Below are positions 812 through 19,979 of a stretch of 64,000 bases of DNA, piece by piece. The stretch is from NCBI GenBank assembly GCA_964556395.1, contig CAZKVR010000003.1, positions 30,715-94,714 of the forward strand. Direction: 5' to 3'. Position 1 is the first letter of the stretch. Each line of letters starts with the position of its first letter. The translations under genes were made by a program, and so were the position numbers. The stretch is from an uncultured Methanosarcinales archaeon (lineage in GTDB: Archaea; Nanobdellota; Nanobdellia; Woesearchaeales; WJKR01). The notes below the pieces were generated by a model, which saw only the letters and a program-made list of their open reading frames with translations, had not been told where the DNA came from and did not search any database.

Positions 812-1375
812 TTAACCGACGACTTCCAGCCGGAACTGCTTTGAAGCGAGCTCCCCATCATCCCCACCTACCATCCGGACGGTGCAGATGTACGTACCTA
901 TAGGGACGTCATCATCAACGGAGACCAGGGCCTCGAAACCTTTCGCCTCGCCAGAGTTGACGGTCGCACTCATAGAGTTTAAGGTAATACCATTAACTTG
1001 ATTATCTGCACCACCGCCAACACAATTCAAATAATCCTCCCCATCATAATTACCCTGACTCCCGGTCGGGCCTACGGTCTGTTGAGAGTCCTTGTTGTAG
1101 AACCCTATCTCCAAAGGCACGGTCTTGCCTTTGGACGTCGTGACGACGCGGTCTATAGTCATGACATCCTCCGCGTTGGCAGGGTTCTCGAGACGCGTAT
1201 TATCCAACACGCTACCGAGGTTTTCAGTCCCCTTGCTGAACAACCCCCTGATGAACGTCAATCCCAACCCGAGGACGACCATCGCCATCACGAGGATGAC
1301 GATTGCGTTGATCGACAATTGCAAGCTACCGCTCTTACGCCTTCTTGAACGCTTGAAGATATCCATGATACACAC
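812..1375 (-). CDS. Putative pilin-like or secreted protein with a class III-like signal peptide
   Basis: Basic N-terminus (KRSRRRKSG), then a hydrophobic stretch SLQLSINAIVILVMAMVVLGLGL. A Gly/Thr/Asn-rich extracellular domain follows. Confidence 0.4.
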   Translation of the reverse strand: MCIMDIFKRSRRRKSGSLQLSINAIVILVMAMVVLGLGLTFIRGLFSKGTENLGSVLDNTRLENPANAEDVMTIDRVVTTSKGKTVPLEIGFYNKDSQQTVGPTGSQGNYDGEDYLNCVGGGADNQVNGITLNSMSATVNSGEAKGFEALVSVDDDVPIGTYICTVRMVGGDDGELASKQFRLEVVG

Positions 1376-1407
1376 CTCTGACCTTTCCGCACAACAATCA
1401 TATATAA

Positions 1408-1419
1408 AGGTTTCTCTCG
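1408..1419. promoter_or_regulatory. Near-palindromic TATA box (CATATATAAAGG) between divergent genes
   Basis: AT-rich box 33-57 nt from both divergent start codons, at 1375 (minus) and 1465 (plus). Confidence 0.45.
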
Positions 1420-1464: not shown

Positions 1465-2598
1465 ATGACACGGCCAAGCCTCACGACCGATGAGCGGAGA
1501 GCGGACACGTTCTTCGACCTCGTCGCGGACAGGCTCACCTTCTCTGACATCAACCCTACGAACGAGAAGGGCGCCAAGCAACGCTTCCTCAAGCACGGCA
1601 AGGAACCCCAGTTCCGGTACGGCCAGCCGGCCGAGGAGCTCAGCCAGTTCAAGGCAGGCCTCGAACTCCTCCCAAAGCTCGAGGACGGCGTCGCAGCAAG
1701 CATCCTCAACGCCAAGCAACAAGAACTCATCAAGAAGATCCGATTGTTGGAACGCCTCGGCACGCCGGGGTTCGCCACCACCAGCGCGCAGCTCTACCCA
1801 TTGCCGGACAAGAAGCTGCTCGAACAAGCCCGCACACTCCTACAACTGCCGCCGTCAGGCAAGGCGAAACGCATCACCCGCATAGAAGGCATCAAGCTGA
1901 TACGGAAAGTGCTCGACCACCTAGGCCTCAAGTACGCGATCAGGAGCAGCCCCATACTCACGTCAGCCCGGATGCAAGCAAGCAACAGGCTGCTCGAGCT
2001 CAAGAAACGCGAACGGTTCTCGGAAGACTACCTGAAACGGCTCGTCGTCCACGAGATCGGCACACACGCTCTCCGAGGCGAGAACGGAGCCCTACAACCA
2101 TTGAGAGTGTTCAAGAATGGGTTCCCAGGATACCTCGACGCGGAGGAAGGACTGGCAGCCTACAACGAGTACCAGGCAGGACTCCTCACCAACTCAATCC
2201 TACGCAACTACGCCGGACGCGTCATCGCCATCGACACCGCCTCCAAAGCAGGCTTCAAGGAGACCTACAAGGAGTTGAGGAAGCACTTCACGCAGAAGAC
2301 GGCGTGGAAACTCGCGGTCAGGGCGAAGAGAGGACTGAAAGACACGAGCAAGCCAGGCGCGTACAGCAAGGACGCCGTCTACCTCAGAGGACTCATCACC
2401 ATACTAAAGTTCGCGGAAGGCCACGACCCGAACGAGCTCTACCACGGCAAGGTAGCGCCGAAAGACCTAGCAGCCATGAAAGGCATCCCAAGCCTGAAGA
2501 AACCAAGATTCCTCCTCCAACGCGTGCTCGACAAGGACCTCATCACACCCACTGAACGACGGGTTGAAGAAGAGACCATACGACAACTCACGAAGTGA
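1465..2598 (+). CDS. DUF1704 / QEGLA-motif zinc metalloprotease (MATCAP-like carboxypeptidase family)
   Basis: HExxH-like HEIGTHAL motif and EEGLAAYNEYQAGL (QEGLA-type) motif. Length 377 aa is typical for TIGR02421/DUF1704. Confidence 0.6.
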   Translation: MTRPSLTTDERRADTFFDLVADRLTFSDINPTNEKGAKQRFLKHGKEPQFRYGQPAEELSQFKAGLELLPKLEDGVAASILNAKQQELIKKIRLLERLGTPGFATTSAQLYPLPDKKLLEQARTLLQLPPSGKAKRITRIEGIKLIRKVLDHLGLKYAIRSSPILTSARMQASNRLLELKKRERFSEDYLKRLVVHEIGTHALRGENGALQPLRVFKNGFPGYLDAEEGLAAYNEYQAGLLTNSILRNYAGRVIAIDTASKAGFKETYKELRKHFTQKTAWKLAVRAKRGLKDTSKPGAYSKDAVYLRGLITILKFAEGHDPNELYHGKVAPKDLAAMKGIPSLKKPRFLLQRVLDKDLITPTERRVEEETIRQLTK

Positions 2599-2604
2599 CG
2601 ATCC

Positions 2605-3198
2605 ATGGAAGCGTACCGCCAGACGACAGAGTACACCGGAGCGGCCGCGACGCTCCTCACCCTGCTCCACCACTACGACCCAGAGATACCGCTGAACCGG
2701 GAGGAAGAGTTCCGCATCTGGCACCGGACCGCAAACCTGCCGGTGAGGGCGCCGTCCATCTACGGCCTCGCGCTCGTGGCGCAGGAGCACGGCCTCAGAC
2801 CACGCATCGTGCTGGAAGAGAAGGAGTACGACTACCCGGACTACCGGTTCAAAGGATACACGAAGAAAGAAGTGGACGAGGCGAAGTTCTCATCAAAACT
2901 CTACGCCAAGCGGGCGGAGGCGGCAGGCATCCCGGTCGAACAACGCGAAGTCACGCTGAAAGAAGTCCTCAAGACCCTGAATGCAAGCAAGAAGCTCCTG
3001 CTACGCGTCAACGCCGGCGTGTTCCGCAAGACAGGCAGCACGAGCAAGTACGTCGCAGTCCACCAAAAACAAGGAGTCATCAAGGCCGTCGACCCGAGGT
3101 ACGGAGAGCTCGACGTCAAGGAAGAGGAACTGGAAGAAGCCATGGCGACGCTGCAGACGAAGAAGAAACGCGACGTCCGGATGATAGTCCTGGACTAG
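2605..3198 (+). CDS. Papain-fold peptidase C39-like domain protein (DUF3335-like), catalytic Cys apparently replaced by Thr
   Basis: YRQTTEYTGAAATLLTLLHHY matches the C39 Q-x5-C-G-x-A-x-L pattern with T at the Cys position. A downstream H....G.I.AVDP resembles the C39 His/Asp region. 197 aa. Starts 6 nt after the DUF1704 stop. Confidence 0.45.
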   Translation: MEAYRQTTEYTGAAATLLTLLHHYDPEIPLNREEEFRIWHRTANLPVRAPSIYGLALVAQEHGLRPRIVLEEKEYDYPDYRFKGYTKKEVDEAKFSSKLYAKRAEAAGIPVEQREVTLKEVLKTLNASKKLLLRVNAGVFRKTGSTSKYVAVHQKQGVIKAVDPRYGELDVKEEELEEAMATLQTKKKRDVRMIVLD

Positions 3199-4439
3199 AA
3201 CGAACGGGCGGCAGCCCTATAATAGTCCTCGAGCAGCAAGACGTCGAGGTCCTCATAGTTCTTGAGGAGGTACAACGACCCGCCGCCGACCTCGACGAGC
3301 CGCTTGGACAACGCCTCGCCCTCCTCATCCAAGGAGAGGCCGACGACGCTCACCGTGACGCCCTGTTGGGCGGCCTCGCTCGCCGCCTCGAGCACCCTGG
3401 CGGTGGGGTCCTGGCCGACGGTCTGCAAGCCGTCCGTCAAAAGGAGTACGTGCTTGACGCCCTGTTCTTCCTCCAACAACCATGCGGCGTGCCTCAACGT
3501 GGCGGCGAGGTCCGTCTCCTTGCTCGCACGGGCCCGCGTGATGAGCCTCGCAAGAGAGAGGAAGTCGCTCGTCGGAGACAACGAAGCCTCAATCTCACGT
3601 CCGAACACGACGAGGCCGACGCGGTCACGCTTCCGCGTCGCCTTGAACGACAACGCGACGCCGGCCCGCTTGGCGGCGGCGAGCTTGTCACCCTTCATGC
3701 TACCGCTCGCATCCACGGCGTAGACGATGGACGCGCGCTGCCGGGACTCGCGGTCGAGGGCGACGAAGTCATCCTTGCTCAACGAATCGTGGCCGCGGCG
3801 GAGGGACTTCTTGATAGAGGCCTTCAGGGCGAGGTCTCGGAAGCGGTGGTGCTGTCGGAACGGCGCGTAGGAGGACGCCTCGCCGTCATCGGCCCGGGCG
3901 CGGCTGTCGCGCTCGCCCAAGGCACCGTGGCGGTCGAGCTTGTCAAGCTCGTCGGCGGTGAGGGCGAGGGCGGCGACGGTGAACCCTTCCTCGGTCAGGG
4001 CCTCGTCATCGTCGAGCAAGCCTTCGTCCTTGAGGGACTTGATGGACTGCTGGACGCGGTCGCGGAGCTCGCGCTGGAACTCAGGGATGCGGACGTTCTT
4101 CTCCACGTAGGACGGGTCGTAACCTGTCAATTCGCGTATGAAACGCTCGCCGTAGAGCTCTTTCGCCTGGCGGTACTGGTTGACGAGCTGGTCGGCGAGC
4201 ATGTCGGGCGAGAAGGAACGGAGGCCGTGGTTGACGCCTTCCGAGAGCATCATGCCTTCGGGTATGAAGTCCTTGTCGTTCTCCAGGACTGAGCGCATGA
4301 GCTTGTCGAGCTCCTCGCTGTGCGCGAGGGAGCCGTCGGCCTCCTCGGCCTCGCCGACGTCCCCTATGCGGGAGGACTCCTGGTCCGGCGCGTCATCCAG
4401 CCCCTCATCGTAGGAGGGGGAGGTGCTACCGGCCACCAC
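3195..4439 (-). CDS. von Willebrand factor A (VWA) domain protein with acidic N-terminal region (ChlD/CobT-like partner of an AAA+ ATPase)
   Basis: MIDAS motif DASGSM. VWA-like beta-alpha pattern in the C-terminal half. Acidic N-terminus. Confidence 0.7.
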   Translation of the reverse strand: MVAGSTSPSYDEGLDDAPDQESSRIGDVGEAEEADGSLAHSEELDKLMRSVLENDKDFIPEGMMLSEGVNHGLRSFSPDMLADQLVNQYRQAKELYGERFIRELTGYDPSYVEKNVRIPEFQRELRDRVQQSIKSLKDEGLLDDDEALTEEGFTVAALALTADELDKLDRHGALGERDSRARADDGEASSYAPFRQHHRFRDLALKASIKKSLRRGHDSLSKDDFVALDRESRQRASIVYAVDASGSMKGDKLAAAKRAGVALSFKATRKRDRVGLVVFGREIEASLSPTSDFLSLARLITRARASKETDLAATLRHAAWLLEEEQGVKHVLLLTDGLQTVGQDPTARVLEAASEAAQQGVTVSVVGLSLDEEGEALSKRLVEVGGGSLYLLKNYEDLDVLLLEDYYRAAARSF

Positions 4440-5454
4440 CCGTTTCCTTGTCGACCCGCTCCATGAGCTTGTCGTAGGAGGCGCGGACGTACGCCTCGGG
4501 GGTTGAGAGGAATTGCGCGCTCGGCTTGAGCCGTATGCGGTGCGCGATGACGGACTCGACCGCCTTGCCGAGGTCCTCGAACGACACTTCTTCGCGGCCG
4601 GCGAGGTAGGCGTTGGCCTGGGCGCGCTCGTACAGTCCGAGGGTTGCGCGGACGCTAGGGTGCTTCTCGAGCTTGTCGTCCTCGCGGAGCTCTCGCACGT
4701 AGCGTACGAGCGCTTCCTTGACTGGTTGCGGGACGGTGACGAGCCGGTGCCCTTTGGTGTCGACGATGCGCTCCTCGACCTGCTGGCTTTCAGGGTAGCG
4801 CATGCGGGCGATGTCGAACCGGTCGAGGAAGACGTCTGACAATGGTTCGGTGCTGTTGTCGTCAGGGTTCATCGTCCCTATGAATATGAAGTTGGCGTCG
4901 AAGTCGACGTCGTAGCTGCCGATGGTGAGCTTGCCCTCCTCGAGAACTTGGAGGAGGGCGTTCTGCAGTTTTTCAGAACAACGGTTCACCTCGTCGAAGA
5001 AGAGGATGCCATTATTGGCTTTGAAGATCTTGCCGGGCGTGAACGCCTCGAGGGATAGGGGGCCGTACTTCATCGCCTTGAGCGGGTCGATGTCGCCGAG
5101 GAGGTCCTCTGCGGTGAGGTCGGGGGATCCTTGCACCCTGATGAAGCGCTCCTCGCCTTTGACTTTTTTTGTGGGTGCTTCCTCGCCTTTCCGGGCGCGT
5201 GCGATGCAGTCCGGACAGAGCGGGTGGCCTGGCTTGCAGTGGAAGCCGCAATCCACCACTTCCATGGATGGGAGCAGTTTCGAGAGGTTCTTGACGAGCG
5301 TGGTCTTGCCGATGCCGGGCGGGCCTATGAGTATGAGGTGTCGGTCCATGAGGATGGCGCTCTTCAGCTCGTCCTTGACGTGGCCCTGTCCGATGATGTC
5401 CTGGAACTCCGCGTCGCGGAGGTTCTTCCCGAGGAGTGGCTGGTGCGGGGTCAT
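4426..5454 (-). CDS. AAA+ ATPase, MoxR / Mg-chelatase ChlI-like, with a Cys-rich insert
   Basis: Walker A GPPGIGKTT, Walker B ILFFDEVN, sensor FIFIGTMNP. Insert CGFHCKPGHPLCPDC. Overlaps the VWA gene by 14 nt (operon). TATA-like TTTTTTAAACC sits 25-36 nt upstream. Confidence 0.75.
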   Translation of the reverse strand: MTPHQPLLGKNLRDAEFQDIIGQGHVKDELKSAILMDRHLILIGPPGIGKTTLVKNLSKLLPSMEVVDCGFHCKPGHPLCPDCIARARKGEEAPTKKVKGEERFIRVQGSPDLTAEDLLGDIDPLKAMKYGPLSLEAFTPGKIFKANNGILFFDEVNRCSEKLQNALLQVLEEGKLTIGSYDVDFDANFIFIGTMNPDDNSTEPLSDVFLDRFDIARMRYPESQQVEERIVDTKGHRLVTVPQPVKEALVRYVRELREDDKLEKHPSVRATLGLYERAQANAYLAGREEVSFEDLGKAVESVIAHRIRLKPSAQFLSTPEAYVRASYDKLMERVDKETGGGR

Positions 5455-5496
5455 AACCGGAGCATGAAGCAGGCGCGGTTTAAAAAAGTGTGGTTT

Positions 5497-5967
5497 CTAC
5501 AGGGCGAGGAGGACGAGGCCCGCAGCCAAAGGGATAGCGAGGTTGTCGTCGAGCAACGGCTGCGGTCGTGGGAATGATTCGACGAGCATGCCGGCGAGGC
5601 TTGCGAGGAACGCTGATAGGGGTGTGAGGAGCAGCGTGAGGACGAGGAAGGACGCGGCGGTGCCTCCGAGGAGTCCCGCCCAGGTCTTCTTGCGATGCCA
5701 AGGGAGCTTTGCGGATGAGAGGTCGCGTCCGACGAGTGTCGCGAAGGCGTCGCCGTAGACGAGGACTGCGAGAGCGGGGACAGCTACGTCTTTTGGGAAG
5801 AGGGCTGTGGCCACCAAGAACCCTTTGAGGAGCGCGAGGAGTCCCCAGAGCGGGAGGTAGGCGTCCCTACGGCCATAATGCTTTTGCGCCCACGCCACGA
5901 GCCGGTGGAGGCCGAAGAGAGTTGTTATCTGGCTGAGGAGTATGAGGCCGTAGGCGGCGACGAGCAT
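5497..5967 (-). CDS. Polytopic membrane protein (possible CTP-transferase / dolichol-kinase-like DUF92 family)
   Basis: 4-5 hydrophobic helices. KTWAG...GG motif region. Weak family assignment. Confidence 0.3.
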   Translation of the reverse strand: MLVAAYGLILLSQITTLFGLHRLVAWAQKHYGRRDAYLPLWGLLALLKGFLVATALFPKDVAVPALAVLVYGDAFATLVGRDLSSAKLPWHRKKTWAGLLGGTAASFLVLTLLLTPLSAFLASLAGMLVESFPRPQPLLDDNLAIPLAAGLVLLAL

Positions 5968-6088
5968 GCCGAGATACCACCACCACTGCGCGATGCCGGT
6001 GGCCGCGAGTAAGAGGAGGAACGAACCTGTAAGGAGGTGTAGGATTTGCCGCCGGTGCTCCTTCCGCCTGATGATGTCCGCTATGGTC

Positions 6089-6571
6089 TCACGCTCCGAT
6101 GCCGAACAGGCCTCCGCCTACGAGTGTTATGAGGGTGACGAGAGATCCTGCGACGAGGACTCCTATGATGCTGGCGAGGTAGAAGTCCCGTCGCTTGACA
6201 CCGAGGAGGTATGCTCCGAGGGCGCCGGTGTACACGCCTGAACCGGGGAGGGGGATGGCGATGAAGGCTGCGACGCCGAACTCGCCGTAACGGTCGATGG
6301 ATCGCTGGATGCGGCGCTGCGCCCGCAGGACGACCTTCGAGAACCACCGGTCGAACCACGGCCAGCGCCTGGCGAGTCCTATGAGGAGGTCTACGAGCTC
6401 GTAGAGGACGAACCCGAGGAGGATGTTGGCGATGACGATGGCGAGGAGGAACGGGATGGCGGGCAGGTCCGTGGCGAGGAGGAGGAAGGGGATGCTGGCC
6501 CTGAGCTCGAGTGTGGGGAGGAGTGTGAAGAGGAGTACTAGGATGGCGTCGTGCATGGGTATTGAACGCAT
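6089..6571 (-). CDS. Small membrane protein, putative small multidrug export family (PF06695-like)
   Basis: Start trimmed to ATG 6571 (MRSIPMHD...). IPLPGSGVYTG motif. TATA TTTATAAA at 6582-6589. Confidence 0.4.
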   Translation of the reverse strand: MRSIPMHDAILVLLFTLLPTLELRASIPFLLLATDLPAIPFLLAIVIANILLGFVLYELVDLLIGLARRWPWFDRWFSKVVLRAQRRIQRSIDRYGEFGVAAFIAIPLPGSGVYTGALGAYLLGVKRRDFYLASIIGVLVAGSLVTLITLVGGGLFGIGA

Positions 6572-6717
6572 GAAAGGATGTTTATAAAACCTTGGTTCTG
6601 GAACCGCATTGCTGAGACCTCGCAAGTTATCGCTCGGAAGCGAAACATTTAAATAATGCATCTGGAAGAAGAAGGTTTCGAGAAACTCATCAGTTCGAGT
6701 GCGAGGTGAATACCACA

Positions 6718-7281
6718 ATGGCAAAGAGAGGTCAAGCAGCATTAGAATTCCTGACGACGTATGGCTGGGCATTCCTCATCATCCTCGTGATGATTGGAGC
6801 GTTCGCGTACTTCGACATACTGAACCCACAACGATTGTTCCCGGGCAAGTGCCAGTTCCAGGTGGGCATCACGTGCGACCAGTACAAGATAGCCAACCCC
6901 GGCGGTGTCGGAGCAGGTGATGACCCGTACGTCCAGTTCGAGTTGAAGAACCAGAAAGGCAGCAGCATCTATGTAAGTAACCTCGAGTATTATAATCCCA
7001 ACTCCGGCGAATATGAGGCGTGCAGCCAAGAAGATGGAGGGTCTGGTATAGGTACATACGGAGATATAGATCAGGTGTTGGATGAAACCACCGGTACTGA
7101 CATCTCAGCTGAGCGACGGTTCGACATGACGTGCGTCTTCGATGACGAACATGTCGACGCCGTCGTCGGTGACAAGGCCACCGTCAAGGTACGGTTCTGG
7201 TACAACGAAGGCGCCACCGCTGACGATGAGTACGAGAAGCCAATGGAAGGCAGCATCGTATCCGACGTGACGGATAGTTAA
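6718..7281 (+). CDS. Archaeal type IV pilin with class III signal peptide
   Basis: MAKRGQAALEFLTTYGWAFLIILVMIGAFAY is a canonical [KR]GQ-A/S-x-EFL class III signal. Cys-containing secreted domain. Oligo-T terminator follows. Confidence 0.75.
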   Translation: MAKRGQAALEFLTTYGWAFLIILVMIGAFAYFDILNPQRLFPGKCQFQVGITCDQYKIANPGGVGAGDDPYVQFELKNQKGSSIYVSNLEYYNPNSGEYEACSQEDGGSGIGTYGDIDQVLDETTGTDISAERRFDMTCVFDDEHVDAVVGDKATVKVRFWYNEGATADDEYEKPMEGSIVSDVTDS

Positions 7282-7287
7282 AGACCC

Positions 7288-7312
7288 TTTTTTCTTTCTC
7301 TTTTTTTCTTCT
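7288..7312 (+). terminator. Oligo-T archaeal terminator
   Basis: TTTTTTCTTTCTCTTTTTTTCTTCTC immediately after the pilin stop codon. Confidence 0.5.
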
Positions 7313-7340
7313 CTCCACACCGACCCACAGGCGATACCAT

Positions 7341-7805
7341 ATGAATCCGAAAGCCCAGCAGTCCTTGGAGTTCATGGTCACCTACGGGTGGATGATCCTC
7401 ATGGCAGGCGCTGTAGCAGGCTCCCTCGCCTACTTCGGCGTGTTTGACTCCGACCAGAACCTCCCGTCCCAGTGCAACCTCGGCTTCGACTTCTCCTGCG
7501 AACAGTTCGTCCTGTTCGACAACGGCACGGTGCGCGTGGAAGCGGGGAACAAGGCCGGCGAACCCTTGGAAGTGGAGTCGTTCAGGTGCACCTACCCTGA
7601 CGAGAGCGTGGACTCCACCACGTATGGCGGCGCCGAGTGGCTGCCGGGCGACACGTTCAACCTCGCCTGCAACCCCTCAGGGGGAATCCTCACAAATGGT
7701 GAGCGTGAGAAAGTGAAGGTGAAGCTGGAGTACCGCAAGAAAAGCGGAGGCTTCACCAAGCACGTCGAAGGAGACGTCGCCGCCATCGTGGCGGAGAGCT
7801 CTTAA
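7341..7805 (+). CDS. Archaeal type IV pilin with class III signal peptide (tandem second pilin)
   Basis: MNPKAQQSLEFMVTYGWMILMAGAVAGSLAY. Similar architecture to the upstream pilin. Confidence 0.75.
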   Translation: MNPKAQQSLEFMVTYGWMILMAGAVAGSLAYFGVFDSDQNLPSQCNLGFDFSCEQFVLFDNGTVRVEAGNKAGEPLEVESFRCTYPDESVDSTTYGGAEWLPGDTFNLACNPSGGILTNGEREKVKVKLEYRKKSGGFTKHVEGDVAAIVAESS

Positions 7806-7884
7806 AATAAGGGACGCGAAAGTTTATATATGACAGTGGCGCCCCGTACACCCCACGTATAAACGTCAGGCAGGGGAATGCACG

Positions 7885-10800
7885 ATGGGCAATCACGAGA
7901 CCACCGCGGAGAAGGAATCCACGCTCAGGGAGTTCTGGAAGGACCAGGACCTATTGAGGAAGCTGCAGGAACGACGCAAAGGAGGAGAGAAATACTTCCT
8001 CCTCGACGGGCCGCCGTACGCGAACGCGGTGCCGCACGTCGGCCACATCCGCAACACGGTGTACAAGGACCTCTACATCCGCTGGAATTTCATGAAGGGC
8101 AAGGACGTCCTGTTCCAGCCAGGGTTCGACACCCACGGCCTGCCCATCGAGAACATGGTGGAGAAGCAGCTGGGACTGAAGAGCAAGAAGGACATCCAGA
8201 AGCTCGGCATCGCGGAGTTCATGAGGAAGTGCAAGGACTCGGCGGCGCTGAACAAGGACCTATGGATGGAGGTCTACGACCTGTTAGGGTCGTGGTACTC
8301 GTGGAAGAAGCCCTACCTGACGTACGAGAACTCATACATCCAGTCGGTATGGTGGAGCTTCAAACAGCTCTGGGAGAAAGGCATGGCGTACGAGGGACAA
8401 CGACCAGTGTTCTGGTGCCCTAAGTGCGAGACCGCCCTCGCCGGCTACGAGGCGACGGACTCATACAAGAACGTCACCGACCCGTCCATCTACGTCAAGT
8501 TCCCGCTCAAAGACTCTGAAGAATACCTGTTAGTGTACACGACGACGCCGTGGACGCTGCCGTCCAACACGTCACTATTCGTCGCACCCGACAAGGACTA
8601 CGTCAAGGCGAAGACGGAGAAGCACGGCACGCTCATCCTCGCGAAGAACCTCGTCAAGGTGTTGGACGAGTTCGACGTGCGGTACGAAGTCATCAAAACG
8701 TTCAAAGGGAAAGAACTCGTAGGCAAGGAGTACGAGCCACTACTCGACCTCCCCACACAGCAAAAACTCCGAGAACACCCGAAAGCGCTGAAGGTGTACG
8801 AGTCCAAACCCATCCTGAAAGAGCGCATCAGCCCGAAAGTGGCTGCGAAGAAAGGCATCGCCGCCGGCGACGTGTACGAGGACTTCGTCACGGTCGAAGA
8901 AGGCACCGGCATCGTCCACTGCGCCCCAGGCCACGGCAAGACAGACAACGAGATCGGAAAGCAGCTCGGACTGCCAGAGGTGAGCCCACTCGACGACCAA
9001 TGCAAGTTCACCGCAGAAGCGGGCGAGTTCAAAGGAGAGTTCGTCAAGGACGCCGACCACGCGATCGCCGACGTCATCCACAAGAACGGATTGTTGCTGC
9101 ACTACGGGACGCTGGAACACTCATACCCGTTGTGCTGGCGGTGCAAGTCACCCCTCATCTTCAGGATGAGCAACCAATGGTTCCTCAAGATAAGCCCTAT
9201 CAAGGACGAGATGCTGGAGGCCAACGACAAGGTGGAATGGCAGCCAGGCTACGCGAAGGAACGGTTCGGCACATGGGTGGCGAACGCGGACGACTGGAAC
9301 TTCTCCAGGCAGCGGTACTGGGGCGTCCCCATCCCCATCTGGAAATCGGAGTCCGGAAAGACGCTCGTCATCGGCAGCGTCGAGGAACTTCGGAAACACG
9401 CCACCACCGAGGTACCGGATGACTTCGACCTCCACACCGTCAACGACCTCACCCTGAAACACCCGGAGACGGACGAGGAGATGACCAGGATAAACGACAT
9501 CTTCGACGTGTGGTACGACAGCGGCTCGGCACCCTACGCCTCGCTCGGATACCCGTTCGAGAACAAGGAACTCTTCGAAGGACACTACCCCATCGACCGC
9601 ATCAACGAGTCGCAAGACCAGATACGCGGATGGTTCTACAGCCTCATGTTCTGCAACACCGCGGTCTTCGGAAAAACCCCCTACCACAAGGTGTCCATGC
9701 CCGGCTGGGTGTTGGACAAGCACGGCGAGAAGATGTCCAAGTCGCAAGGGAACGTCGTCTCGGCCAAAGAAGCCCTGGAAGAGGTCGGGGCGGACGCTAT
9801 CAGGTTCTACTACTGCTGGGACATCGCTCCGGAAGCGACGGAGAAGTTCGACATGGACACCCTCCGCAACGACGTCAGGCGGTACTTCACCATCTGGCAG
9901 AACCTCGTCAAGCTCGCCAAGGAGCGACAGGTATCGTTCTCGGCCAAAAAGGTCGGCGCCGCCTCTGTGGAGGACCAATGGCTCCTCTCAAGGCTGCACA
10001 CGACCATCAAGGAGGTCCGCGAAGCCGTGGAAGGGTTCCACCTCCACCTCGCGGGCCGGAGCCTGCAACGGTTCGTCATGGAAGACCTGTCGCGGACGTA
10101 CGTCCAGCTCGTCAGGGACCGCATGGAAGATGACACGACCCCGGCTGCCATCATCAGCCACGCATTGTGGAAGGTCGGCATCGTCTCAGCAGCCATCACG
10201 CCGTACCAGAGCGAGTACGCATATCAGGCGCTGAAGGAACTCTTGAAAGAAGACATGGAGACGTCGGTCCACCTCGAGACGTTGCCAGTCCCTGACTTGG
10301 ACCTCATGGACGAGCACCTCGAAGAAGCCATGACATTGGCGGGCGAGGCGATCGCCGGCATCCTCGCGGCGCGCGACAAGGCGCAGACCGGCGTGCGCTG
10401 GCCGTTGCAGGAAGTCATCATCGACACGGACGACGCGGAGACCGCCAAGGCGGTCGAGGAGTTGGACGAGCTCGTCAAGCGCCAGGCCAACGTCCGCGCC
10501 GTCAAGGTCGAGCACTTCCCGGTCGAGTATAAAGGCAAACCCAACTACAAAACGTTAGGACGGGCGTACGGCGAGCAGACCGGCGACGCCATCAACGCCA
10601 TGCAGGCGCACATGGACGAGGTCATCAAGGGCGTGACGGGGAAGGAAGGCAAGGCTTCCGTGGAAGGCTTCGAGTTCCTGCGGGAGCACGTCCAGCTTGA
10701 CAAGGTGGTTCCGGAGACGCACGCGTCGGGCGAGTTCAAGCATGGGACCGCATACCTGCTGAAAGAGGTTCCGCGAGAGCTCGAGATGGAAGGCTACGCC

Positions 10801-16422: not shown

Positions 16423-16599
16423 TCATTCTTCGAACTCCTCATCAGAAAGGTCGAACTCACGGCAGCCGAAGCACGGCGTAGCGAGGAAGCCATCGACCAT
16501 CTTCTTAGGATCGAAACAACAACCCTTGATATGGAACTCGCAACCGCTGCACTCAGGAGCGGACTGCTCCTGAGGTCCGAACAGAGAACGCCGAGCCAT
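16423..16599 (-). CDS. 58-aa zinc-ribbon protein with acidic C-terminal tail (MARRSLFGPQEQSAPECSGCEFHIKGCCFDPKKMVDGFLATPCFGCREFDLSDEEFEE). LysW-like candidate carrier or RimK substrate. Missing from ORF track (<60 aa).
   Basis: My own translation of the minus strand. CxxC ... CC ... CxxC. The C-terminus ...DLSDEEFEE ends in Glu. TATA CTTTTTATACC at 16621-16631 is 22-31 nt upstream. Located 40 nt downstream of the RimK-like stop. Confidence 0.55.
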   Translation of the reverse strand: MARRSLFGPQEQSAPECSGCEFHIKGCCFDPKKMVDGFLATPCFGCREFDLSDEEFEE

Positions 16600-16638: not shown

Positions 16639-17736
16639 TCACATGAACCGCTTGACCGACAACGAACCCTTGGAAGCGACGAGCTTGACAGAGTCAGAAT
16701 CATTGAACCCAGTCAACTTGGACACCAACTCCGGAAGGAGGATGCGAGCACCCCGGAAATCAAGCTGGGTGATGAGCTCCTGCTCCCGACCACCATCGCC
16801 ATTCTCGCTGTTGAGATCAGCCATGATCTCCTTCGTCTGACGATCCTTACGCGAATCGGACAACTCCCTAGTCTTATCATACAAGTACTGCGCGATCAAG
16901 TCAGCCACGTCGACCTTCGTCGCCTCCGTGATGCCCTGCAAGCCAGGGCTGATGTTGATCTCGATGATAAGAGGACCGGTAGGACCCTCAAGGATGTCGA
17001 CGCCGCAGATGTCAGCGCCGAGCGCCTTGGCGGCGTCCACCGCAATCTTCTCAGTATACGCGTCAGGGACGAACGGCTCGCCAGCGCCGCCAGCGTGGAT
17101 GTTGGCGCGCTTGTCGACACCCTTACCCTTGCGCTTCATAGCCGCAGCAACCTTGTCACCGACCACGATGAGCCGGATGTCAGTAGACTCCGTCTCGACG
17201 TACTCCTGGATGAGGAACGGCTGGTTCAAGGCATCCAACGCATCCAAGATAGTGGAAGCGCTGGCAAACGAGTCGGCGAACATGACACCCTTGCCCTGGG
17301 TGCCCTGCGGGAACTTCATGATGATAGGATAGTTCATCTTGGAAAGGACATCCTTCGCCGCCTGGATGGTCGCGGAAAGATAGGTCCGCGGCATGGGGAG
17401 GTTGCGCTGCTGCAGCACCAGCTGAGTGAGCAGCTTGTCGTGCGCGATGGTGTACGCGCTCGGAGCCAACGGCAGGAAGACCGCCTCGTTCGTCGAGAAC
17501 AAGTCGGCCAGCGCCCGGAGCAACTGGGCGTACCGGAAGGAACCCTTGATGAGCAAGCAATCATAATGCGGGACCGGCTTGCCCTCATAGAGCACCTCAG
17601 CCTTCTTGCCCGAAAAGTTGATGTCAAGGAACTTGACGTCGAGGTGGTCCACCTCGTCGAAATAATTCCTCATGGCATCGAGCGTCCACTGGGAACTCTT
17701 GCTCTTGCCTGAGATAAGCGCTGCTTTCATGATCAT
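16639..17736 (-). CDS. RimK-like ATP-grasp alpha-L-glutamate ligase family protein with a C-terminal extension of about 80 aa
   Basis: ATP-grasp motifs: KFPQGTQGKGV, IQEYVE, RANIHAGG, IIEINISPG. 365 aa, versus about 290-300 for RimK, LysX or CofF. Confidence 0.75.
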   Translation of the reverse strand: MIMKAALISGKSKSSQWTLDAMRNYFDEVDHLDVKFLDINFSGKKAEVLYEGKPVPHYDCLLIKGSFRYAQLLRALADLFSTNEAVFLPLAPSAYTIAHDKLLTQLVLQQRNLPMPRTYLSATIQAAKDVLSKMNYPIIMKFPQGTQGKGVMFADSFASASTILDALDALNQPFLIQEYVETESTDIRLIVVGDKVAAAMKRKGKGVDKRANIHAGGAGEPFVPDAYTEKIAVDAAKALGADICGVDILEGPTGPLIIEINISPGLQGITEATKVDVADLIAQYLYDKTRELSDSRKDRQTKEIMADLNSENGDGGREQELITQLDFRGARILLPELVSKLTGFNDSDSVKLVASKGSLSVKRFM

Positions 17737-17737
17737 A

Positions 17738-18094
17738 TCACCTGTTGGGATCGATGAGGAACCCTCTCTTGAGGACGTTCTGGCCGACGAGAACCTTGTA
17801 CTTCATGTGCTCACGATCGGCGAGGGTGAACTTCTCAGTCACCTCCTTGCCACGGATGCAGATGGTCGCCTCGATGACCGGCCGGAGCTTGCTGCCGTGA
17901 GCGCTCTTCACCAACCTTGATTCGACGACGGGGCCGAGCTTGAGCTGGCTCGCCAGCTTGTAATCAATGCTGCTCTTCGTAGCACCGGTATCGATGCGCG
18001 CCTTGAGCGCCTCGCTCACGCCGCCATGACGGAGCTCGACGTCCTCGACCATACCAATCAGTATCCTCTCCCTACCTTCGTCGTCCTTGATCAT
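17738..18094 (-). CDS. Retropepsin-like aspartic protease (PF05618 'putative ATP-dependent zinc protease' family), RimK-associated
   Basis: Active-site ARIDTGATKS (D-T-G-A). 118 aa. Its stop lies 1 nt before the RimK-like start. Its start overlaps the lysS stop (ATGA). Confidence 0.65.
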   Translation of the reverse strand: MIKDDEGRERILIGMVEDVELRHGGVSEALKARIDTGATKSSIDYKLASQLKLGPVVESRLVKSAHGSKLRPVIEATICIRGKEVTEKFTLADREHMKYKVLVGQNVLKRGFLIDPNR

Positions 18095-19584
18095 AATCCC
18101 TCATCCTTCTGCGGCCTCATGGTCGGGAACAATATCACATCACGGATGGAGTCGTTCCCGGTGAATAACATGACGAAACGGTCGATACCCAACCCGACGC
18201 CGCTCGTCGGCGGCATACCATGCTCCAGGGACGCGAGGAAATCCTCATCCATAGGATGGGCCTCCTCGTCGCCGCCGCGTCCGCGCTCGGCCTGCTCTTC
18301 CAGCAGCCTTCGCTGCACGACGGGGTCATTGAGCTCAGAATAGGCGTTGCCCATCTCCCAACCGTTGATGTAGACCTCGAACTGCTCGACATAGCGATCA
18401 TCACCATCTCGCCGGGCTTTGGCGAGCGGGGTGTTCTCGACAGGGTAGTCCCTGACGAACGTTGGTTGTATGAGCTTGTCCTCGCACTTCCCCTCAAAGA
18501 TAGCGACGACGAGCATGCCCCAGCTGCTGGCGTCGTACTCGATACCTTCCTTGTCGCAGTAGTCGAGGAGGTCTTCCCGCGACATGCTGTCGATGTCGAG
18601 GCCAGTGTGCTCGTTGACAACCGCGGCGACCGTCATCCGCCTCCAAGGGGGTTTGAGATCTATCTCCTTGCCGTCGAACGTAATCTTCGTCGTGCCGAGG
18701 ACGTCCTGGGCGGCCTTGCTCACCGCATCCTCCACGAGGCGCATGCCATCGTTGTAGTCACCGTAGGCCTGATACCATTCCACTTGGGTGAACTCAGGGT
18801 TGTGGGTGCGGTCGATGCCTTCGTTGCGGAAATCCTTGACGAACTCGTAGACGCGCTCGAAGCCACCCACCAAGAGCCGTTTGAGGTAGAGCTCGTTGCT
18901 GATCCGGAGGTAGAGCCTCATGTCGAGGGCGTTGTGATGGGTGACGAACGGCCGGGCGTTGGCGCCGCCGTACACGGGCTGGAGGGTCGGCGTCTCGACC
19001 TCGAGGAAGCCGTTGCCGTCCAGCGTCTGTCGGATGCTCTTGATGATCTTCGAACGCTTGATGAACGTCTCACGCACCTCGGGATTCATGATGAGGTCGA
19101 GGTATCGCTGGCGGTAGCGGAGCTCGGTGTCCTGGAGGCCGTGGTACTTCTCAGGGAGGGGCCGGAGGGACTTGGCGAGGAGCTCGAGGCTCTTGGCGCG
19201 GACGGTGACCTCGCCTGTCTTGGTGGCGAATACCGTGCCGTCGGCACCGATGATGTCGCCGATGTCGAGCTTCTTGAAACGCTTGTACTGCTCGTCTCCG
19301 AGCTCGTCCTTGCGGACGTAGAGCTGGATCCTTCCGGTGGCGTCCTGGATGGTGCAGAATGAGGCCTTGCCCATCACGCGCAACGCCATGATGCGGCCGG
19401 CCACGACGACTTCCTGCTCGGTCGTCGCTTCAGGCTCGAGGCCCTTATGGGCTTCCTGGACCTGGGCGGCGTCGTGGGTCTTGCCGTACCGGTATGGGTA
19501 CGGGTTGACACCATTTTCGAGGAGCGCCTCGCGCTTCCTCATACGTTCCTGTACGAGCCGGTGCTCGTTCTGTTCCTCCACCAT
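18091..19584 (-). CDS. lysS: Lysyl-tRNA synthetase, class II
   Basis: N-terminal OB anticodon-binding domain. Class II motifs FRNEG, GLGIDR. 497 aa. Confidence 0.95.
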   Translation of the reverse strand: MVEEQNEHRLVQERMRKREALLENGVNPYPYRYGKTHDAAQVQEAHKGLEPEATTEQEVVVAGRIMALRVMGKASFCTIQDATGRIQLYVRKDELGDEQYKRFKKLDIGDIIGADGTVFATKTGEVTVRAKSLELLAKSLRPLPEKYHGLQDTELRYRQRYLDLIMNPEVRETFIKRSKIIKSIRQTLDGNGFLEVETPTLQPVYGGANARPFVTHHNALDMRLYLRISNELYLKRLLVGGFERVYEFVKDFRNEGIDRTHNPEFTQVEWYQAYGDYNDGMRLVEDAVSKAAQDVLGTTKITFDGKEIDLKPPWRRMTVAAVVNEHTGLDIDSMSREDLLDYCDKEGIEYDASSWGMLVVAIFEGKCEDKLIQPTFVRDYPVENTPLAKARRDGDDRYVEQFEVYINGWEMGNAYSELNDPVVQRRLLEEQAERGRGGDEEAHPMDEDFLASLEHGMPPTSGVGLGIDRFVMLFTGNDSIRDVILFPTMRPQKDEGL

Positions 19585-19631: not shown

Positions 19632-19979
19632 TCAGAGAAGGGAGAGGTCTCCGACGACGGTGTCGACGTCCTGTTCAGAGGCTGGGCCGATGGCGAGGGC
19701 GGTCCTGGTGCCTGGGGCGACGACTGTCTTGCCCGCGTCGGTGATGATGCTGGCGACGAGGCCTTTCCGCTTGGCATCCTGCTGTATGCTGAGGAGCGAT
19801 TGCTCGTCAGGCACTTTGAGGACGACCTTCTTCATGCCGGCGGCGTGCCAGTCGCTCACGATGTCCTTGGAGCTGCGAAGCGTGGCTTCCACGCTGGCGT
19901 GGGCCGCTTGGGCGGCGGCTTTCCCTTTCGGGAGCTTGAGGTCCGCCCTGATGACGATGGCTTGCTTGAGGTCTGCCAT
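19632..19979 (-). CDS. pth2: Peptidyl-tRNA hydrolase, PTH2 (archaeal/eukaryotic type)
   Basis: IVIRADLKLPKGKAAAQAAHAS signature. 115 aa. TATA GTTATAAAGC at 19999-20008. Confidence 0.9.
   Translation of the reverse strand: MADLKQAIVIRADLKLPKGKAAAQAAHASVEATLRSSKDIVSDWHAAGMKKVVLKVPDEQSLLSIQQDAKRKGLVASIITDAGKTVVAPGTRTALAIGPASEQDVDTVVGDLSLL

Follow-up and report, generated by a model that had tools for sequence, protein, structure and literature searches.

A 64-kb window (64,000 nt of contig CAZKVR010000003.1) from a Candidatus Woesearchaeota (DPANN) genome carries near one end a two-gene unit, in which a gene for a metallocarboxypeptidase is followed by one for a papain-fold protein. Both open reading frames (ORFs) are real and lie exactly where a first-pass annotation of the window had placed them, on the plus strand at 1465..2598 (377 aa) and 2605..3198 (197 aa), with an intergenic gap of 6 nt (TGA-cgatcc-ATG). 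That the window is DPANN archaeal DNA follows from the 197-aa protein, whose sequence is 100% identical to that of a protein in a metagenome-assembled Candidatus Woesearchaeota genome. The first protein belongs to the MATCAP/TMCP family (PF08014, formerly DUF1704) and retains its catalytic motifs. The second is a stand-alone member of DUF3335 (PF11814), a C39-like papain-fold protein in which catalytic residues of the family have been lost. We hold these two identities and the pseudoenzyme status of the second protein, taken jointly, with high confidence. The two genes are presumably co-transcribed. A TATA-like box (ATATATAAAG, 1402..1411 on the plus strand), read off the sequence about 55 nt 5′ of the MATCAP start, is a weak pointer to a possible archaeal promoter for the unit.

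The 377-aa protein matched the PF08014 MATCAP profile over positions 5-351 of 365 (E 2e-46, 159.1 bits, cut-off 27), which confirmed the family to which it had first been assigned. Against TIGR02421, the QEGLA equivalog, it scored 172.2 bits, under the cut-off of 338.65, and its motif reads EEGLA, not QEGLA. Both catalytic motifs that had been noted are present and intact, H196-E197-x3-H201 (HEIGTH) and T226-E227-E228-G229-L230-A231, but the label HExxH given to the first was wrong: HEIGTH spans six residues and is the HExxxH motif of the MATCAP/TMCP family, whose third metal ligand lies in the EEG motif (PMC10499314). H196, E197, H201, E227, E228, G229 and A231 are invariant among 41 aligned archaeal orthologues, and the ratio of nonsynonymous to synonymous substitution rates (dN/dS) against the closest relative, at locus L111, is 0.13. 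To judge from these residues, the protein is an intact and presumably catalytically competent metallocarboxypeptidase. The sequence of the human MATCAP/TMCP1 structure (KIAA0895L, 7z5g) aligns directly with the 377-aa protein along some 200 residues (E 2.8e-17), with HEIGTH and TEEGLA identical in the two. As this match spans residues 138-339 only, the archaeal protein lacks the N-terminal microtubule-binding extension of the human enzyme. Human TMCP1 and TMCP2 (KIAA0895), both PF08014 members, take off C-terminal Tyr, then Glu, as well as polyglutamate side chains (PMC10499314), whereas archaea have no such tubulin tails and the genomic partner here is a dead papain-fold protein. In archaeal MATCAP homologues the motif is T-E-E-G-L-A, as in the human enzyme, in contrast to the bacterial Q-E-G-L-A that gave TIGR02421 its name.

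The 197-aa protein matched PF11814 DUF3335 ('Peptidase_C39 like') with E 9.7e-15 and 55 bits (cut-off 25) over profile positions 3-168 of 206. Together with the papain-like (C39-type) topology of its AlphaFold2 (AF2) model, this bears out the fold that it had been given at first. Distant PF11814 relatives were collected by an exhaustive profile search (301 matches) and aligned to the profile. As reference we used 81 canonical DUF3335 relatives, all of which have the catalytic Cys and His, since these were the selection criteria, and 84% of which have the Asp. The canonical signature reads Y-x-Q-T-x-[DE]-F-T-C-G-P-A ... P-H-W-V-V ... [HN]-D-P, whereas the 197-aa protein has Y-R-Q-T-T-E-Y-T-G-A-A-A ... 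S-K-Y-V-A ... V-D-P at the same positions. Its nucleophile column is occupied by Gly12 (codon GGA). The first-pass annotation had placed a Thr at the Cys position, but T11 corresponds to the conserved Thr just before the Cys in F-T-C-G, and Thr is found in the column itself only in other orthologues. Nor does the alignment reveal a true Cys, which would have made the protein an active C39 peptidase. The catalytic His column (P-H-W-V-V) holds Lys148, and both Gln6 (oxyanion) and Asp163 (D163-P164) are retained, so that of the His/Asp region described downstream the Asp is kept and the His is gone. In the AF2 model residue 12 is followed directly by a helix (13-24), and the two adjacent strands 147-155 and 158-163 hold K148 and D163, which fits the placement of all three residues.

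The two catalytic columns were counted across the 114 Woesearchaeota orthologues in which both could be aligned. The nucleophile column holds Cys in 43, Thr in 42, Gly in 22, Ser in 5 and Ala in 2. The general-base column holds Lys in 76, Asn in 22, Arg in 7, Gln in 6 and Ser in 3, and His in 0 of the 114, while 113 of them have kept D163. Mapped on a neighbour-joining tree, the nucleophile column requires no fewer than 13 changes, starting from an inferred Cys at the root. In the most parsimonious scenario the ancestor of the clade lost the His once, and from then on the Cys was no longer needed. These residues indicate that the 197-aa protein is a conserved pseudo-peptidase, predicted to be catalytically dead as a cysteine peptidase. 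It had been proposed to be either inactive or Thr-dependent; the former holds, and the latter is excluded as a general mechanism by the Gly or Ala at the nucleophile column in 24 orthologues.

The gene is not decaying, as its dN/dS of 0.17 indicates purifying selection. Moreover, the clade has fixed residues that are absent from the canonical members, namely L45-P46-x-R48, S51, the loop Y75-x-Y-P-D-Y-R-F-K-x-Y-x-K87, R134-x-N-x-G-x-x-R141 (R134, N136, G138 and R141) and a T-K-K-K-R-D stretch near the C-terminus (K186-R189). The protein is basic (isoelectric point 9.05). No relative in the PDB was found by sequence, and no match to PF03412 (MEROPS C39) was obtained at E <= 0.1. It is neither fused to nor encoded beside an ATP-binding cassette (ABC) transporter, and is not of the bacteriocin-processing C39 type. 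The C39-like domain (CLD) of HlyB (PDB 3zua) is likewise an inactive C39 relative, but it belongs to the PF03412 lineage, is fused to an ABC exporter and binds unfolded RTX toxins; no sequence-level relationship between it and the 197-aa protein was found.

Canonical DUF3335 proteins are mostly GNAT-DUF3335 fusions, and GNAT-papain fusions are known to accompany RimK-like ligases (PMC10318531). In all four cases that we inspected, GNAT-DUF3335 abuts an RLAN-RimK gene (L118 to L120; L121; L124; and plasmid p1 of Azospirillum brasilense Sp7, L126, a record without annotation whose neighbours were identified by phmmer). This canonical module keeps the Cys and His, the GNAT fusion and the adjacent RLAN-RimK. 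With it the 197-aa protein shares PF11814 and a Y-x-Q-T...T-[C]...E35...W39...D-P scaffold, but it is stand-alone, with no N-terminal GNAT domain and no adjoining RLAN-RimK or other ligase, it has neither Cys nor His and its C-terminal segment is different (TKKKRD.RM). The association with a metallohydrolase is common to both. At L121 and L122 the other flank of DUF3335 is taken by a zinc hydrolase of the AstE/AspA type, and a 448-aa protein on an archaeal-looking contig (P0292, L116 6540..7886) is a fusion of DUF3335 with such a hydrolase. Together with the MATCAP gene at the present locus, the partnership of DUF3335 with a metallohydrolase thus occurs in three forms: AstE/AspA neighbour, AstE/AspA fusion and MATCAP neighbour. 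The papers found do not mention the fused architecture. The DUF3335 part of P0292 has kept its Cys, its His region is degenerate, and its gene neighbours encode a tRNA synthetase of class I (PF00579) and a FEN1-like nuclease of the XPG family.

The MATCAP family was surveyed from its own side in 80 metagenome loci (782 kb in total). ATP-grasp or retropepsin genes are adjacent or nearby in six of them, four abutting MATCAP and two at 4.5-9 kb. At L033 and L036 the gene that overlaps the stop of MATCAP is RimK-like (281 aa). L109 has, immediately 5′ of MATCAP, a fusion of a TIGR02291-type ATP-grasp with a retropepsin domain. L106 probably has such a fusion too, represented by the retropepsin-domain end of an ORF that is truncated by the start of the contig and overlaps the start of MATCAP. 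The last two loci have an orthologous retropepsin-RimK pair downstream of MATCAP, at 4.5 kb in L043 and 9 kb in L087. In bacteria, a QEGLA family member adjoins an ATP-grasp gene and is co-regulated with RimK; in Photobacterium at low salinity, RimK and the QEGLA protein are co-induced 52-fold and 27-fold (PMC10308900). At the family level, MATCAP and DUF3335 are both associated with ATP-grasp ligases of the RimK type.

This supports a link of the two families to RimK-like ligases, on which the first-pass annotation had drawn. The TIGRFAM triad that it named is a different system from the DUF3335 one, however. The bacterial QEGLA system consists of the TIGR02421 protein and a TIGR02291 ATP-grasp with the RloA retropepsin and RloB, an inactive transglutaminase fused to seven transmembrane helices. 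It shares PF08014 with the first gene of our pair, as well as the theme of a ligase, a peptidase and an inactive papain-fold domain, and L109 (probably also L106) carries the TIGR02291-retropepsin fusion beside MATCAP. The present locus, on the other hand, has EEGLA, a TIGR00768-type ligase 13 kb off and, as its inactive papain-fold protein, a soluble PF11814 member in place of the membrane-bound transglutaminase. As a triad in the window, the assignment failed: the local RimK scored 21 bits with TIGR02291, the MATCAP protein falls under the TIGR02421 cut-off and the papain protein is PF11814; the rest of the window was not scanned for a transglutaminase.

The ligase of the window was found at 16639..17736 (-). 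It is a RimK-family alpha-L-glutamate ligase of 365 aa (PF08443, E 4.6e-42; TIGR00768, 176.6 bits, cut-off 143.4) and a candidate distant writer. It had been placed 14 kb from the pair; the measured distance is 13.4 kb. Its scores stay below the cut-offs of the equivalog models for RimK of E. coli, LysX, MptN and CofF. A phmmer search with the MATCAP-adjacent ligases of L036 and L109 found no second ATP-grasp in the window, matching only this RimK and the retropepsin next to it. The minus-strand order is PTH2 (peptidyl-tRNA hydrolase, 19632..19979), the lysyl-tRNA synthetase LysRS (18091..19584), retropepsin, RimK and a 58-aa ORF. The retropepsin-type aspartic peptidase, directly upstream of RimK at 17738..18094 (-), is a RimB/RloA-like protein of 118 aa that contains DTGA (PF05618, E 3.3e-15; NF052264, 3.8e-15, and NF052261, the RimB model, 3.3e-10, both under their cut-offs). 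The same rimB-rimK pairing occurs in the S6 glutamylation systems of Pseudomonas and E. coli, but the RimK here has an additional C-terminal segment of about 80 aa (residues ~285-365, encoded at 16639..16890 (-), ...LDFRGARILLPELVSKLTGF...) and the RimB-like gene is under the NCBIfam cut-offs. This extension has no Pfam match, is conserved in the L043 orthologue (7392..8486) and could be a substrate-recruiting or regulatory domain. Archaea are not known to have the ribosomal protein bS6, so the target here must differ.

The 58-aa ORF downstream of RimK (16423..16599, minus strand) had been put forward as a tagged substrate. It is Cys-rich with a LysW-like layout (C17xxC20 ... C43xxC46 followed by the acidic tail DLSDEEFEE, with which it ends), and a TATA-like TTTTTATA lies about 30 nt upstream. 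Among 5.8 billion proteins the only match was to itself, Pfam and NCBIfam gave none, its GC content at third codon positions is 0.61 compared with 0.76-0.81 in the neighbouring genes, and no counterpart follows the RimK orthologue in L043. As an orphan without a family and with a deviating composition, it is a doubtful gene, and we rejected it as evidence for a RimK substrate.

The best overall explanation, to which we assign a probability of about 0.45, is a two-gene unit of a trimming carboxypeptidase and a binding pseudoenzyme that would handle the products of RimK-type alpha-glutamate ligases. It is the best-supported reading because active DUF3335 proteins are partners of RimK, some of them paired or fused with zinc carboxypeptidase-like hydrolases. 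As to how the pair might act, we propose tentatively that the MATCAP enzyme, with HExxxH and the third metal ligand in the EEG motif for catalysis, would strip C-terminal Glu or aromatic residues one at a time from acidic tails or oligo-alpha-glutamate peptides. The dead DUF3335 protein would serve as a non-catalytic binding or adaptor module, so that one partner trims and the other binds. The 6-nt gap and the recurrence of the pair in near relatives argue for a coupling of the two genes, and the two proteins may be coupled physically or functionally. They may also be coupled to the RimK/RimB module, which lies 13 kb off, and the writer, eraser and reader roles that had been proposed around this RimK are a plausible hypothesis. 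We consider it quite improbable that the whole of the stronger version holds, in which the MATCAP enzyme and the dead DUF3335 protein form a complex, the latter reads what RimK writes on alpha-glutamylated or acidic C-terminal tails, and an AstE/AspA partner was swapped for MATCAP.

Several observations weigh against the pair as a handler of RimK-type products, first of all its distribution. The DUF3335-anchored survey covered one genome per species (26 loci) and four metagenome loci. MATCAP stands beside DUF3335 in 0 of the 26 species-level loci and in 0 of the 80 MATCAP loci, and no MATCAP homologue was found within 10 kb of DUF3335 in the 26 species-level and four metagenome loci. A conserved operon was rejected on these anchored counts. 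A co-occurrence with ATP-grasp ligases, expected on the earlier proposal, is found in six of the 80 MATCAP neighbourhoods, as described above, but not for the archaeal DUF3335 clade, as no RimK or retropepsin homologue lies within 10 kb in any of the 30 loci. Outside the window the pair turned up only in its close relatives: at L111/L112, with 88% identity and likewise a gap of 6 nt, and at L113, with 57% and 50% identity and a gap of 26 nt. L114 and L115 (63% identity) hold the same synteny block (pilin-like genes, DUF3335, VWA, AAA+ ... isoleucyl-tRNA synthetase) without the MATCAP gene that is present in it at L111 and L113. The slot 5′ of DUF3335 thus varies by insertion or loss of MATCAP, and the dead DUF3335 protein evidently works without MATCAP next door. 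The pairing is not a conserved unit but is restricted to the subclade of this locus. Most archaeal MATCAP genes adjoin housekeeping genes (those for an RsmB/F-type methyltransferase, RNase HII, PTH2 and the threonyl-tRNA synthetase ThrRS). Moreover, RimB cuts the Glu tails added by RimK in Pseudomonas (PMC11957051), so the RimK of the window already has a candidate eraser next door in its RimB-like peptidase. Finally, the sole substrate that had been proposed is an orphan.

The distribution leaves considerable room for an accidental adjacency, in which MATCAP was inserted or retained in a conserved block, the two proteins act independently and DUF3335 possibly serves the genes on its other side; we regard this as the main rival and a real possibility. 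These genes encode a VWA-domain protein (3195..4439, minus strand; PF13519/PF00092) and its partner, a MoxR/ChlI-like AAA+ ATPase (4426..5454, minus strand; PF01078, PF07728, PF07726, PF20030). In 15 of the 26 species-level loci such a pair follows DUF3335 at a distance of 0-4 kb, a VWA gene is also found downstream in L001-L004 and L111-L115, and it is always accompanied by the AAA+ gene. The arrangement persists even with other genes on the upstream side (TruD in L001, genes without assigned function in L003), and it is the block itself that is conserved, with or without MATCAP, while the pairing is absent from all MATCAP-anchored loci. However, the VWA/AAA+ pair (3195..5454) is convergent with DUF3335, the 3′ ends overlapping by 4 nt, and must therefore form a separate transcript. 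Its conservation also far exceeds that of DUF3335, and at L036 and L041 it is present with no DUF3335 gene beside it, so that the association may be regional synteny only. Against mere accident, the metallohydrolase partner of DUF3335 recurs in three independent forms, and the 6-nt spacing argues for co-transcription of MATCAP and DUF3335 in this lineage.

A second alternative, which we think rather unlikely, is that MATCAP is a housekeeping carboxypeptidase of peptide turnover or C-terminal processing that has nothing to do with ATP-grasp ligases, with RimK and RimB as a self-contained writer and eraser. This would account for the predominance of translation and nucleic-acid housekeeping genes among the MATCAP neighbours and for the low number of loci (six of 80) with an ATP-grasp or retropepsin gene nearby. 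It also agrees with the contiguity of RimK and the RimB-like gene in the window and with the demonstrated role of RimB-type retropepsins as Glu-tail erasers (PMC11957051). On the other hand, abutting or overlapping ATP-grasp or retropepsin genes in four loci are not likely to arise by chance at about 1,000 genes per genome. Three types of ligase are found near MATCAP (RimK-like, the TIGR02291-retropepsin fusion and the orthologous RimK), and the bacterial relative that adjoins an ATP-grasp gene is co-regulated with RimK (PMC10308900). That the 197-aa protein is still an enzyme with another nucleophile and base, such as a Thr/Ser/Cys-Lys dyad, is very unlikely: 76 of the 114 orthologues do have Lys at residue 148 and 90 have Cys, Thr or Ser in the nucleophile column, but 24 have no nucleophilic side chain there (Gly in the 197-aa protein and 21 others, Ala in two), and the repeated changes of this column, together with the variation of residue 148 among K, N, R, Q and S, indicate relaxed constraint and not a conserved catalytic dyad.

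The role of MATCAP/TMCP enzymes as erasers of the tubulin tail code came to light only in 2022-2023, and we know of no prokaryotic relative with a demonstrated substrate. An archaeal member with motifs identical to the human ones, whose relatives repeatedly stand beside ATP-grasp ligases and poly-Glu-cleaving retropepsins, offers a concrete setting in which to test what the family did ancestrally. New here are the pseudoenzyme clade and its pairing with MATCAP, both of them variants of known families. The Woesearchaeota-wide PF11814 clade is annotated as 'peptidase C39 family protein', and the loss of the catalytic residues corrects this annotation, since such proteins should be unable to act as cysteine peptidases. 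The clade is also a clean example of how the loss of a His may be followed by repeated loss of the nucleophile, leaving a conserved pseudoenzyme with new basic motifs. Should the dead domain prove to be a binder of glutamylated tails, RimK-type modification would have its first proposed 'reader'. If writer, eraser and reader indeed act together, they would make up a three-part system for C-terminal tails in a DPANN archaeon, which would be the prokaryotic equivalent of the eukaryotic tubulin-tail code and perhaps its precursor.

Some further observations concern the surroundings of these genes. Directly 5′ of the MATCAP-DUF3335 pair lies a cluster of genes (812..1375 on the minus strand and small ORFs) for small proteins whose hydrophobic N-terminal segments are of the archaeal class-III (pilin-like) type. 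This cluster has zero Pfam matches and is kept in the synteny block (L111 95..2276, L113 6534..8720). PTH2 lies directly downstream of MATCAP in seven of the 80 MATCAP loci (L087 6123..6536 and six others). In the window PTH2 heads the LysRS-RimB-RimK string, and at L087 MATCAP-PTH2 is followed 9 kb on by retropepsin-RimK; this arrangement may be a remnant of an older region that joined MATCAP and RimK. At L124 a Peptidase_M49 gene (6007..7677, minus strand), from another family of HExxxH metallopeptidases, lies about 1 kb from the RLAN-RimK/GNAT-DUF3335 pair, which may be coincidence. On plasmid pSINME02 of Sinorhizobium meliloti AK83 (L127), a stand-alone canonical DUF3335 gene ('peptidase C39 family protein', 4956..5624) stands at the end of an ABC transporter operon of five genes, together with genes for a substrate-binding protein, two ATPases and two permeases. 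This operon is a third genomic context for the DUF3335 family.

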